This document shows positions 25,417 through 29,993 of a DNA stretch of 32,000 nucleotides, one piece after another; within the stretch, counting starts at the first letter, position 1, and every line of letters begins with the position of its first letter. The stretch lies in the NCBI RefSeq assembly GCF_042660085.1, contig NZ_JBHSTI010000008.1, positions 150,001-182,000 on the forward strand. The letters run 5' to 3'. The stretch comes from Longivirga aurantiaca. Its GTDB lineage: Bacteria; Actinomycetota; Actinomycetes; S36-B12; CAIYMF01. The position numbers and the translations under genes are program-made. The notes under the pieces were generated by a model. That model was not told the origin of the DNA and searched no databases. It saw nothing but the letters and a program-made list of their open reading frames with translations.

Positions 25417-26475
25417 TCAGGCGATTTCCCACGTGTCGCTGCCGGCGAGCAGGGAGCCGAGGTCGGCGCTGCCGCCGGCCTTGGCCGTGGCGAGCTGCGC
25501 CTGGAACATCGAGTCGTACGACGCCCGGGGCACGTCGCGGAACACGCCGATCGGAGTGTTCGCGAGCGTCATCGAGTCCGACAGCCGCGACAGCGCGAAC
25601 GCGGTCGAGGGGTCGGGGCGGTGGGCGTCGTGAACGAGGATGGCGTCGAGACCGACCTCGGCGACGTCCGCGACCTCGAGGCTGCCCTCGGCGTTGCGGA
25701 TCACCCCGCGGGTGCCGTCGACCAGCGTGATGGGCTGGCCGTGCTCGAGCCGCAGCGTGAGCGCGTCGCGGTGGTCGGAGTCCTTCAGCGGGTCCCACGC
25801 ACCGTCGTTGAAGATGTTGCAGTTCTGGTAGATCTCGACCAGCGCCGTGCCGTCGTGCAGCGCGGCCTGGCGCAGCGTCTCGGTGAGGTGCTTGCGGTCG
25901 GAGTCGATCGTGCGCGCGACGAACGACGCCTCCGCACCGATCGCGAGCGACACCGGGTTGAACGGGTGGTCCAAGGACCCCATGGGCGTCGACTTCGTGA
26001 CCTTGCCGACCTCGGACGTCGGCGAGTACTGCCCCTTGGTGAGGCCGTAGATCCGGTTGTTGAACAGCAGGATCTTGAGGTTCACGTTGCGGCGCAGCGC
26101 GTGGATGAGGTGGTTGCCGCCGATGGAGAGCGCGTCGCCGTCGCCGGTGACGACCCACACCGAGAGGTCGGGCCGGGTCATGGCGAGGCCCGAGGCGATC
26201 GCCGGGGCACGGCCGTGGATCGAGTGCATCCCGAAGGTGTTCATGTAGTACGGGAAGCGGCTCGAGCAGCCGATGCCGGAGATCCAGACGATGTTCTCCT
26301 TGGCGAGCCCGAGCTCGGGCATGAAGCTCTGGACGCCGGCCAGGATCGCGTAGTCACCGCACCCGGGGCACCAGCGCACCTCCTGGTCGGTCTTGAAGTC
26401 CTTCGCCGACTGCTTCCCGTCCGTCTTCGGGACGAGCTTCAGCGACGGGAAGCCCAGATCGACGGACTCAGACAC
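25417..26475 (-). CDS. korB: 2-oxoglutarate:ferredoxin oxidoreductase, beta subunit (KorB)
   Basis: Contains WCPGCGDYAIL, GIGCSSRFPYY and VTGDGDALSIGGNH (thiamine diphosphate-binding motif). The GTG start overlaps the korA end by 8 nt. Confidence 0.92.
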   Translation of the reverse strand: MSESVDLGFPSLKLVPKTDGKQSAKDFKTDQEVRWCPGCGDYAILAGVQSFMPELGLAKENIVWISGIGCSSRFPYYMNTFGMHSIHGRAPAIASGLAMTRPDLSVWVVTGDGDALSIGGNHLIHALRRNVNLKILLFNNRIYGLTKGQYSPTSEVGKVTKSTPMGSLDHPFNPVSLAIGAEASFVARTIDSDRKHLTETLRQAALHDGTALVEIYQNCNIFNDGAWDPLKDSDHRDALTLRLEHGQPITLVDGTRGVIRNAEGSLEVADVAEVGLDAILVHDAHRPDPSTAFALSRLSDSMTLANTPIGVFRDVPRASYDSMFQAQLATAKAGGSADLGSLLAGSDTWEIA

Positions 26476-28324
26476 TGGCGACCACGTCCTTGATGACTCC
26501 GGCGAGCTCCTCGGCCCTGAACGGGAGGCCTCGCACCTGGTTGTAGGCGATCGCGTCCACGAGGTACTTGCCGCGGATCAGCAGCGCGAGCTGACCGAGG
26601 TTCATCTCGGGGATGACGACCTTGTCGTAGCGGCGCAGCACCTCGGCGGTGTTGGCCGGGAACGGGTTGAGGTGGCGCAGGTGGGCCTGTGCCACCGAGG
26701 CGCCGGCGCGGCGCGAGATCTGGCACGCGGCGTTGATAGGCCCGAACGTCGACCCCCACCCGAGCAGGAGCACGCGAGCGTCTCCGGTCGGGTCCTCGAC
26801 CTCGAGGTCGGGCACCGTGATGCCGTCGACCTTCGCCTGGCGCAGCCGCACCATGCGGTCGTGGTTGTCGGCGTCGTACGAGATGTTGCCGATGCCGTCG
26901 GCCTTCTCAATGCCGCCGATGCGGTGCTCGAGGCCCTTCGTGCCCGGGACGGCCCACGGACGCGCGAGCGTCTCGGGGTCGCGCAGGTAGGGCCAGAACT
27001 CCGTGCTGCCGTCGGCGTTGGTGTGGTTGTGCTCGGTGGCGAACGGGACGCGCAGGTCGGGCAGCGAGTCGACGTCCGGGATGCGCCACGGCTCGGAGCC
27101 GTTGGCGACGTAGCCGTCCGAGAGCAGGAACACCGGCGTGCGGTAGGTGATGGCGATGCGCACCGCCTCCATCGCGGCGTTGAAGCAGTCGCCGGGGGAG
27201 CGCGGCGCCACGATCGGCACCGGGGCCTCGCCGTTGCGGCCGAACATGGCCTGCAGCAGGTCTGCCTGCTCGGTCTTGGTCGGCAGGCCGGTGGACGGGC
27301 CGCCGCGCTGGACGTCCACGATCACCAGCGGCAGCTCGAGCGACACCGCGAGGCCGATCGTCTCGGACTTCAGCGCGACGCCGGGGCCGGAGGTCGTGGT
27401 GATGCCGAGCATGCCGCCGTACGACGCCCCGAGGGCGGCGCCGATGCCGGCGATCTCGTCCTCGGCCTGGAACGTCATCACGCCGAACCGCTTGTGCTTG
27501 CTCAGCTCGTGCAGGATGTCCGACGCCGGGGTGATCGGGTACGAGCCGAGGAACAGCGGGATGTCCGCGCGCTGCGAGGCGGCGATGAGGCCGTAGGCGA
27601 GCGCGAGGTTGCCCGACATGTTGCGGTAGCGGCCGGTCGCCATCGGCGCGGGCTGGATCTCGTACTGCACCGAGAAGTCCTCGGTGGTCTCGCCGTAGGA
27701 CCAGCCGGCCTCGAAGGCGGTGATGTTGGCGGCGAGGATGTCGGGCTTCTTGGCGAACTTCTGCTTGAGGAACGTCAGCGTTCCCTCGGTGGGCCGGTGG
27801 TACAGCCACGAGAGCAGGCCGAGCGCGAACATGTTCTTCGCGCGCTCGGCCTCCTTCTTGCTGATGTTGATTCCCTTGAGCGCCTCGACCGTCATGGAGG
27901 TCAGCGGGATCGGGTGCACCGCGTACGACTCGAGCGAGCCGTCCTCGAGGGGGTTCGCCTCGTAGCCGACCTTGGTGAGGTTGCGGCTCGTGAACTCGTC
28001 GGTGTTGACGATGATGTCCGCGCCGCGGGGGATGTCCTTGAGGTTGGCCTTGAGCGCCGCGGGGTTCATGGCCACCAGGACGTTGGGGGTGTCGCCCGCG
28101 GTCGTGATGTCGTGGTCGGCGAAGTGCAGCTGGAAGGCCGAGACGCCGGGGATGGTGCCGGCTGGTGCGCGGATCTCGGCCGGGAAGTCGGGCAGGGTCG
28201 CCAGGTCGTTGCCGAACGACGCGGTGCGCGACGTGAACTGGTCACCGGCCAGCTGCATCCCGTCGCCGGAGTCACCCGCGAAGCGGATGATGACGCGGTT
28301 GAGCTGGACCACTTGCTTGCCCAC
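26468..28324 (-). CDS. korA: 2-oxoglutarate:ferredoxin oxidoreductase, alpha subunit (KorA, fused alpha/gamma)
   Basis: The GTG at 28324 is preceded by AAGGCGAGGA. The product begins VGKQVVQLNRVIIRFAGDSGDGMQLAG...DFPAEIRAPAGT and contains SYPITPASD and TTSGPG. The upstream 178 codons of track ORF 26468..28858 are Arg/Gly-rich and non-homologous. Confidence 0.92.
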   Translation of the reverse strand: MGKQVVQLNRVIIRFAGDSGDGMQLAGDQFTSRTASFGNDLATLPDFPAEIRAPAGTIPGVSAFQLHFADHDITTAGDTPNVLVAMNPAALKANLKDIPRGADIIVNTDEFTSRNLTKVGYEANPLEDGSLESYAVHPIPLTSMTVEALKGINISKKEAERAKNMFALGLLSWLYHRPTEGTLTFLKQKFAKKPDILAANITAFEAGWSYGETTEDFSVQYEIQPAPMATGRYRNMSGNLALAYGLIAASQRADIPLFLGSYPITPASDILHELSKHKRFGVMTFQAEDEIAGIGAALGASYGGMLGITTTSGPGVALKSETIGLAVSLELPLVIVDVQRGGPSTGLPTKTEQADLLQAMFGRNGEAPVPIVAPRSPGDCFNAAMEAVRIAITYRTPVFLLSDGYVANGSEPWRIPDVDSLPDLRVPFATEHNHTNADGSTEFWPYLRDPETLARPWAVPGTKGLEHRIGGIEKADGIGNISYDADNHDRMVRLRQAKVDGITVPDLEVEDPTGDARVLLLGWGSTFGPINAACQISRRAGASVAQAHLRHLNPFPANTAEVLRRYDKVVIPEMNLGQLALLIRGKYLVDAIAYNQVRGLPFRAEELAGVIKDVVASV

Positions 28325-28515
28325 GGTGTCCTCGCCTTGCTGCGGCCGGGTGCGCCGGCGCTCCTGGGGAGTGGTGCTGGGACGACGGCCGGGCGGGCCC
28401 GGTCGTACGAGGCACCATCCTCCCGCGTGATGCCCCCTTTCGCGCGCACGGGTCCCGTCATCCGGACCGCGCGTCGCGATCTTCGCCGAGGGCGTAGCCG
28501 CGCGTCCGGCTCGCC

Positions 28516-29053: not shown

Positions 29054-29592
29054 GCGCGGTGGTGGAGGCGGTCCAGGCGGGCGTCGGCGACTCCGTGCTC
29101 GCGGTCGTCCCCGGGTTCGGGCCGGTCACCGTCGACGTCGCGCCGTTGTCGTGGCACGAGGCCGTCGCAGCGGCCGCTGCCGCGGGGGCGACGTACGCCG
29201 ACGTCCTGACGGCGTACGACGAGCTCGAGCTCGGCTTCGCCGTGGTCGTCCACCTGTCGACGCCGGACGCGTCCGACCATGTGCTCCTGCGGACGCGGGT
29301 GCCGCGCGACCGGCCGGAGGTGGCGACCGTGGTCGACCTCTACCGCGGGCTGGCCTGGCACGAGCGCGCCACCCACGAGATGTTCGGCATCGGCTTCGTC
29401 GGCAACGACGACCTCTCCCCGCTCCGCACCCGGCCCTCGCTCGGCGCGCACCCGCTCCGCAAGGACTTCGTGCTCGCGGCGCGGGTGGCCCGGCCGTGGC
29501 CGGGGGAGAAGGACCCGGCGGGCGACACCGGGCGCGCCCGGCGCCGCACCCTTCCTCCCGGCGTGCCCGAGGGCTGGGGGGAGCAGGCATGA
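29050..29592 (+). CDS. NuoC-family (30-kDa subunit-like) protein, divergent short paralog
   Basis: GTGA overlap with the upstream gene. The 180-aa product contains [22 protein letters not shown]...HPLRKDF, which aligns to the canonical [22 protein letters not shown]...PQRKDY. Confidence 0.85.
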
Positions 29593-29993
29593 GCGAGGAC
29601 CAGGCGCCGGCGGCGACCGACGGCGGCGGCTACGCCGTACCCGCACGCAGCCGCGGCGTGATCACGCTCGTGGAGGAGAACTGCACGGTCTGCATGCTGT
29701 GCGCCCGCGAGTGCCCCGACTGGTGCATCCACATCGAGGGCCACACCGGAACCCTCCCGGCCGACGAGGTGCACCGCCGCCCGCGCACCGAGAACGTGCT
29801 CGACCGGTTCGCCATCGACTTCTCGCTCTGCCTCTACTGCGGCATCTGCATCGAGGTGTGCCCGTTCGACGCATTGCACTGGTCGCCCGAGCACGAGTAC
29901 GGCGGCACCTCGCTCACCGACCTCACGCACGAACGCGACCGCCTCGCCGCCTGGGAGGCCACCGCCCCCACCGACGCCGAGCGCGACGCCTGA
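29589..29993 (+). CDS. NuoI-like 2x[4Fe-4S] ferredoxin-domain protein, short paralog
   Basis: ATGA overlap with the upstream gene. The 134-aa product has [12 protein letters not shown] and [12 protein letters not shown] with NuoI-like spacing. It lacks the canonical NuoI N-terminal segment. It corresponds to the 3' part of track ORF 29151..29993. Confidence 0.85.

Follow-up and report, generated by a model that had tools for sequence, protein, structure and literature searches.

A membrane-less remnant of the nuo2 cluster next to korAB in an actinobacterial order and its probable assembly as a soluble Q-module-like complex

Relatives of complex I are regarded as membrane machines, and the Q-module of complex I exists as a soluble assembly intermediate. 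Here we examine three genes, nuoB2, nuoC2 and nuoI2 (B2, C2 and I2; together, the trio), in a 32,000-nt stretch of actinobacterial DNA (70-75% GC) from Longivirga aurantiaca; "the window" denotes this whole stretch, and G000 the genome to which it belongs. The trio lies head to head with korAB, the genes of a 2-oxoglutarate:acceptor oxidoreductase (KOR). Its described counterpart is the nuo2 cluster of Streptomyces, given as nuoA2, B2, H2, I2 and K2-N2 with a separate nuoD2 and as SCO4599-4608 in S. coelicolor, a list that does not include a C2 gene (PMC8388888). In the same species SCO4594/95 is KOR (PMC8981147), and SCO4606 and SCO4608 are NuoL2 and NuoN2 (PMC3897704); the S. coelicolor equivalent of the korBA-nuo2 stretch is SCO4594/95 plus SCO4599-4608. 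Our literature search found nuo2 treated at the level of annotation only, and no account of a reduced form or of a link to korAB.

We consider it probable that the trio, as a membrane-less nuo2 remnant, encodes a soluble complex, most likely formed together with the separately encoded NuoD2, that does not depend on KOR. To the published picture our analysis adds a two-way decoupling from KOR, the absence of 2-oxoacid:ferredoxin oxidoreductases from five tested genomes with a trio, an order-wide occurrence of NuoD2 with a Tyr-to-Trp change, convergent trimming of I2 and a conserved promoter box.

Descent from nuo2 and loss of the membrane genes

The trio, its downstream flank and the canonical operon of the same window are as follows.

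28565-29053, plus strand: B2, NuoB-like, 162 aa (PF01058; NF005012, 117 bits against a cut-off of 116); four Cys of cluster N2
29050-29592, plus strand: C2, NuoC-like, 180 aa (PF00329, 85 bits); family-specific C-terminal motif RRRxLPPGVPxxW
29589-29993, plus strand: I2, NuoI-like 2x[4Fe-4S] protein, 134 aa (TIGR01971, 68 bits, below the cut-off); two CxxCxxCxxxCP motifs
30142-30633, minus strand: yajQ (DUF520; PF04461, 188 bits), the convergent flank at which the former nuo2 cluster ended
6504-22416, plus strand: canonical nuoA-N operon (context), which carries the genome's single NuoH and its antiporter-like subunits

The three genes are translationally coupled through a GTGA overlap between B2 and C2 and an ATGA overlap between C2 and I2. 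GC content at third codon positions is 0.96 in all three, matching the neighbouring genes, which argues that B2, C2 and I2 are real coding sequence, and because yajQ is convergent downstream of I2, the operon is limited to these three. An earlier reading made from the letters of the window (the sequence-only reading) had the NuoI-like gene begin elsewhere; we correct its start to 29589, outside the long frame at 29151. The same reading had the operon encode only Fe-S carriers. This is right for B2, in which the ligands of cluster N2 (C47, C48, C113 and C143, in CCxxE, GxCxxxGG and C-P contexts) are retained in all intact relatives, and for I2, in which both CxxCxxCxxxCP motifs are present; it is wrong for C2, which has no cluster motif, as NuoC-like proteins carry no Fe-S cluster. 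We also considered I2 as a PorD/KorD delta subunit and rejected this assignment (TIGR02179, 40.8 bits against a cut-off of 60.05; NF042987, 35.9 against 125), as NuoI models score higher.

To place the trio, we aligned 24 C2-like proteins, used the alignment to fetch 80 loci from named genomes and mapped the window's proteins onto them by tblastn; by score, C2 and canonical NuoC overlap. In these 80 loci C2 is part of an A2-B2-C2-H2-I2-(J2)-K2-L2-M2-N2 cluster with no match to D, E, F or G. Full clusters end with N2 followed by yajQ, and reduced clusters end with I2 followed by yajQ. The C-terminal motif of C2 is common to the window and the nuo2 proteins across the 24-sequence alignment, and in a C2+I2 tree the window nests inside nuo2 diversity, far from the canonical subunits, which form the outgroup.

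We then followed the trio across the window's order, in which 60 relatives from 10 families were searched and 40 loci of up to 18.5 kb were mapped. All 40 hold only B2-C2-I2, without any nuo2 membrane gene. The interval between I2 and yajQ contains no A2, H2 or J2-N2 genes, and a PF00146 search of G000 returned a single NuoH, the canonical one, with no second NuoH or antiporter-like subunit. Three further loci without membrane genes came from uncultured Actinomycetota (L019, L063 and L075); their genomes lack an H2-type NuoH, whereas a control genome (that of L060) has one.

The C2+I2 tree, built from 66 rows with a careful search and labelled by hand as full or reduced from the mapped loci, requires four changes to the reduced state, each nested within full nuo2. 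A single clade of reduced forms was rejected, at a cost of 102 log-likelihood units (approximately unbiased test, p=0.0003). The same reduction of nuo2 thus happened about four times independently. An N-terminal amphipathic helix of I2, GLAKGLAVTLRTMTRRSxTxQYP, which is common to full-cluster I2 and canonical NuoI, was lost in all four reduced lineages, while the B2 segment NWGRRYSLW, found in canonical and full-nuo2 NuoB, was lost in the window's lineage and is still present in the younger reductions. This repeated N-terminal trimming fits a module that is no longer seated on a membrane arm.

One genome of the order (G033) has two separate korBA-B2-C2-I2 loci (L135 and L136) on different contigs, and the copies have diverged; this could reflect duplication, transfer or a mixed bin.

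An orphan NuoD2 and selection on the trio

A genome-wide Pfam search for NuoD revealed a second NuoD-like gene in G000, encoding a protein of 391 aa that we call NuoD2 (or D2; G000:C8:77119-78291; L157:7117-8292, minus strand), 72 kb upstream of the window. NuoD2 shares 32% identity with canonical NuoD. In an alignment with Thermus Nqo4, His38 is retained and Trp replaces the quinone-ligating Tyr87, and the segment holding an 11-residue stretch of canonical NuoD is deleted. Five complete genomes that carry full nuo2 (Streptomyces, Actinoallomurus, Micromonospora, Dactylosporangium and Phytohabitans) encode the same orphan with both changes. By hand tally, NuoD2 was found in 45 of the 48 trio-bearing genomes of the order, and 7 of 13 genomes without a detected trio also lack NuoD2. 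In two of the other six (G038 and G055), a B2 adjoining korA was missed by the C2 search, one lying at a contig end and the other having a diverged or missing C2. The association between NuoD2 and the trio is strong but not absolute.

Beside NuoD2 lies a divergent gene for a bPH_2-like membrane protein, which is also found there in Streptomyces and Actinoallomurus and gives no functional lead; a hemerythrin-like gene lies downstream. A third PF01058 match in G000 (C8:1243874) was set aside as unrelated, being the small subunit of a [NiFe] hydrogenase beside its large subunit. This pair (265 and 435 aa) and two further upstream genes occupy G000:C8:1242232-1244333 (L158:6232-8333, minus strand).

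Selection on the trio was gauged from the ratio of nonsynonymous to synonymous divergence (dN/dS). Between close genomes it was 0.13-0.32 for B2, 0.14-0.56 for C2 and 0.09-0.40 for I2, compared with 0.07-0.22 for korAB. In pairs of genomes without KOR it was 0.08 and 0.11 for B2, 0.06 for I2 and 0.12 for C2. All eight Cys of I2 and all four of B2 are retained in every intact copy. The kept Fe-S cysteines and dN/dS well below 1 argue that the trio is a functional, selected remnant and not an array of pseudogenes. In the same genome pairs we observed that dS of the trio (0.3-0.8) is about twice that of korA, korB and yajQ (0.17-0.40); weaker constraint on codon usage or recombination is a possible cause.

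These data also bear on the notion of a decaying, functionless relic that persists as too little time has passed since the deletion. Consistent with decay, dN of the trio exceeds that of neighbouring genes, dN/dS of C2 reaches 0.5 in some pairs, C2 is truncated in two genomes (G049 and G053), and several lineages have lost the trio outright. However, the reading frames are intact across 10 families with all I2 and B2 Cys kept in intact copies, dN/dS stays well below 1 at saturated dS, the start/stop overlaps and the promoter box are conserved, and each of four independent reductions kept these same three genes. We therefore give a relic very little credence.

A second possibility is that B2, C2, I2 and D2 are alternative peripheral-arm isoforms that dock on the canonical membrane arm (NuoA, H and J-N), replacing NuoB, C, D and I, to give an N-module-less, ferredoxin-driven complex I comparable to NDH-1. 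The genome's only membrane arm sits 6 kb from the trio, ancestral nuo2 docked B2/C2/D2/I2 on a membrane arm, and the module persists without KOR, as expected of a general ferredoxin:quinone enzyme. Against such docking, the I2 helix was lost in all four reduced lineages and NWGRRYSLW of B2 in the window's lineage, D2 has Trp for Tyr87 and lacks the segment with the 11-residue canonical stretch, and the module proteins evolve several times faster than the canonical subunits. On balance, we find isoforms of this kind unlikely.

Instead, we favour a soluble complex descended from nuo2. The parent cluster, A2-B2-C2-H2-I2-J2-K2-L2-M2-N2, carries no D, E, F or G and has its nuoD2 elsewhere. Within the window's order it lost all of its membrane genes, and B2, C2 and I2 were left in the ancestral slot between korAB and yajQ. 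Their products, usually with NuoD2, probably assemble as a soluble equivalent of the free complex I Q-module, with a predicted wire of three [4Fe-4S] clusters (N6a and N6b in I2, N2 in B2). Electrons would move between low-potential donors, such as ferredoxin-type proteins, and an acceptor at the altered NuoD2 pocket. By analogy with N-module-less relatives such as NDH-1, the I2 end would be the side that accepts ferredoxin electrons; at the N2/NuoD2 end the altered pocket would make canonical quinone binding unlikely. The data show the identity of the genes, their descent from nuo2, the lost membrane arm, the retained cluster ligands, purifying selection, NuoD2 and its distribution, and the decoupling from KOR; that B2, C2, I2 and D2 form a complex, that it is soluble, which way electrons flow and who its partners are is what we infer in this scheme. 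We propose more tentatively, as a possibility that we would not bet on, that B2-C2-I2 with NuoD2 is an undescribed soluble, Q-module-derived oxidoreductase, reached independently about four times in actinobacteria through loss of the nuo2 membrane arm, in which the remodelled pocket and N2 act on a non-quinone substrate or a protein partner, and which, in species with KOR, could also serve as an outlet for KorAB.

Several observations weigh against the soluble complex as we propose it. The tree groups were fixed only once a quick tree had been inspected. Three genomes with a trio (G011, G017 and G054) yielded no NuoD2, and the four-subunit model is thus not universal. Two genomes that are 99-100% complete (G036 and G045) have NuoD2 but neither the trio nor korAB, and NuoD2 may thus have a role of its own. 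Finally, C2 is shortened in the KOR-less G049 and G053. In these two genomes (loci L149 and L150) we observed that C2 has 114 aa and stops right after PPLRK, without the WPG...RRRxLPPGV tail, at a dN/dS of 0.12.

Linkage to korAB and the shared spacer

The window runs from men genes through nuoA-N (plus strand) and a polyprenyl synthase gene to minus-strand genes for a lipoprotein, an EamA transporter, korB and korA. The korAB side of the trio comprises the following features.

25417-26475, minus strand: korB, 2-oxoacid:acceptor oxidoreductase beta subunit, thiamine pyrophosphate-binding (PF02775, 109 bits; TIGR02177 PorB_KorB, 246.6 bits)
26468-28324, minus strand: korA, 2-oxoacid:acceptor oxidoreductase alpha subunit (TIGR03710 OAFO_sf, 656 bits against a cut-off of 483)
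28325-28564, no strand: divergent control region of 240 bp, with conserved blocks and a hairpin at 28385-28406 (four-genome alignment)
28514-28521, plus strand: -10-like box CCTAGGCT containing TAGGCT (28516-28521), the trio's putative promoter, invariant in four genomes

korA overlaps korB by 8 bp and begins with GTG at 28324, and its N-terminus VGKQVVQLNRVIIRFAGDSGDGMQ agrees with the start positions of homologues; korB is 57-96% identical across the relatives' loci. The korA start, the NuoB-like start at 28565, the spacer of exactly 240 bp and TAGGCT all lie where the sequence-only reading had put them. That reading offered the hypothesis that the trio is a dedicated electron sink of KorAB, co-regulated from the shared spacer and passing electrons to menaquinone or complex I.

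The divergent arrangement is conserved outside this genome, as the sink would lead one to expect. In the order, the trio is flanked by divergent korBA in 31 of 38 evaluable loci (10 families), and in other actinobacterial orders 34 of the 80 loci have a divergent korBA no more than 10 kb upstream of nuo2; the linked korBA-nuo2 loci come from Streptosporangiaceae, Thermomonosporaceae, Streptomycetaceae, Jiangellaceae, Propionibacteriales and Longispora. Three further points speak for a sink: the acceptor of mycobacterial KOR has not been identified (PMC2773412), actinobacterial KorAB lacks its own delta ferredoxin subunit, and Campylobacter Oor feeds a NuoEF-less complex I via flavodoxin (PMC4257069, PMC4453560), which makes the idea a reasonable one for full nuo2.

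The adjacency itself can be read in another way. yajQ, which is functionally unrelated, flanks the trio at 36 of the 38 loci, a linkage no less frequent than that of korAB, and this argues that the adjacency is mostly inherited backbone synteny. The backbone nuoA-N, ispB, eamA, korBA, nuo2, yajQ is conserved as a whole, and adjacency alone is thus weak evidence of coupling between KOR and the trio; the head-to-head position of korAB would be inherited from the old korAB-nuo2 neighbourhood. In some nuo2 loci korA and A2 adjoin directly, and in others unrelated genes intervene: two-component systems (Streptomyces and Embleya), a deacetylase-like protein (Streptosporangium) or a Pro/Gly-rich protein (Actinoallomurus). 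A search of the genes inserted between korA and nuoA2 in the full-cluster loci turned up no ferredoxin. LuxR-type response regulators with DesK-like histidine kinases were observed in the korA-nuoA2 gap (Streptomyces, Embleya) or in the H2-I2 gap (Actinoallomurus), at L070:5177-8797, L061:7427-8878 and L004:11606-12418; they may be regulators dedicated to nuo2.

Co-occurrence, which a dedicated sink predicts, fails in both directions. Seven genomes (G002, G019, G042, G043, G049, G050 and G053; 90-99% complete; families f1, f7 and f8) have an intact, selected trio and no KorA anywhere, in a search whose positive controls matched at 75-96% identity. Five of the seven were searched for the POR_N domain of any 2-oxoacid:ferredoxin oxidoreductase, and none was found. 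Conversely, korAB without a trio is found in five genomes (families f1, f5 and f6), four of which have korA right next to yajQ, separated by 82-259 bp. Micromonosporaceae have both korAB and nuo2, megabases apart. The proposed route towards menaquinone or complex I also finds no footing in G000, which has no second NuoH or antiporter-like subunit as a membrane subunit for reaching menaquinone and whose NuoD2 lacks the quinone-ligating Tyr. Moreover, I2 stays below the PorD/KorD cut-off (40.8 against 60 bits).

Thus, the linkage to KOR is old and widespread, yet either partner persists in genomes without the other, and we consider a dedicated KorAB sink improbable. The trio cannot be an obligatory KOR acceptor, nor KOR an obligatory donor to the trio. 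Most likely, the trio is not a dedicated outlet for KOR, and KOR is at most one of several partners. In the soluble complex that we favour, KOR would be a plausible donor where it is present and could not be the sole one. The question of the KorAB partner is narrowed accordingly: the trio is a candidate acceptor, not an obligatory one.

The spacer was aligned among four genomes of one genus (the window's own, G007, G021 and G025), with flanking genes at a dS of 0.5-0.8. We observed that CCTAGGCT is unchanged in all four whereas most of the spacer has diverged. In G025 the box lies only 8 nt upstream of a GTG start; this is near-leaderless and matches the layout of leaderless transcripts in actinobacteria. 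The window contains three copies of the motif CCTAGSCT compared with 0.48 expected, and three copies were reached in 1 of 100 shuffles; by this measure the putative -10-like box with TAGGCT exceeds chance. The copies, at 245-252 (minus), 4701-4708 (minus) and 28514-28521 (plus), each precede a gene start (two men genes and B2). The motif is the one that had been reported for menE and menF, and it is indeed present before two men genes. A generic sigma-70 and terminator scan of the spacer returned no match, which is expected of the sigma-70 scan for a high-GC actinobacterium, and an Rfam search of the spacer for riboswitches or known RNAs returned no family at E<=1.

In the korA-proximal half of the spacer there is a hairpin at 28385-28406 (inverted repeat I3), ACGGCCGGGC-GG-GCCCGGTCGT, whose stem is kept and whose loop is variable in G007 and G021. 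Either a leader structure of korA or a binding site for a protein is possible.

Comparison with known systems

If the soluble complex is real, a selected Q-module without a membrane arm is present in many abundant uncultured actinobacteria, and the Fe-S wire can work alone. This would bear on the function of actinobacterial nuo2, which has been annotated and never explained, and on the redox partner of KorAB (PMC2773412).

The complex I Q-module (NuoB/C/D/I; Thermus Nqo6/5/4/9, PDB 4HEA) shares with the window's module the same four folds and the cysteines of N2, N6a and N6b, and His38 of Nqo4 is kept in NuoD2. The window's module differs from it in having no NuoH or membrane arm of its own. 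In NuoD2 of G000 and of five further genera, Trp stands where Nqo4 has Tyr87; relative to Nqo4, about 20 residues (315-335; 41 in the window's own NuoD) are missing, and sequence identity is low (32% between NuoD2 and the window's NuoD; about 35-40% between B2 and the relatives' canonical NuoB).

In Campylobacter jejuni, electron flow from Oor through flavodoxin to a NuoEF-less complex I was shown experimentally (Weerakoon and Olson 2008, as cited in PMC4257069 and PMC4453560). The C. jejuni system likewise pairs a 2-oxoglutarate:acceptor oxidoreductase with a complex I derivative that lacks the NADH module, and it is the functional model for a KOR sink of the kind discussed above. The C. jejuni complex has retained a full membrane arm and reduces menaquinone, whereas the trio has no such arm, and korAB and the trio each occur without the other. 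Cyanobacterial NDH-1 is also a complex I relative without NuoEFG, and its NdhI/NdhH side accepts ferredoxin electrons. However, NDH-1 is a membrane proton pump of 11 core subunits with the quinone Tyr intact, whereas the trio has no membrane subunits. Without a proton-pumping membrane arm, both in the order's loci and in G000, the trio falls short of the eleven subunits that define complex I of the NDH-1 or C. jejuni type.

The modules of group 4 [NiFe]-hydrogenase type (Pyrococcus MBS, PDB 6U8Y; MBH, PDB 6CFW) are membrane complexes, unlike the complex proposed here. NuoD2 and MbsL, both of 391 aa, can be aligned over their full lengths, with no complex-I-specific insertion, and the best PDB match of C2 is MbsK; however, NuoD2 scores higher to NuoD than to MbsL (202 versus 152 bits).

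The trio is orthologous to its counterparts in nuo2 of Streptomyces (about 50% identity for C2 and 60-75% for I2), in the same order and in the same slot between korAB and yajQ; both lack E/F/G subunits, and in both nuoD2 lies at a separate locus and carries the same Trp substitution and deletion. The trio locus differs from nuo2 in lacking all seven membrane genes (A2, H2 and J2-N2), and the window's I2 and B2 have shed N-terminal segments. Overall, these comparisons place the trio as nuo2 without its membrane arm, probably working as a soluble Q-module-like complex.

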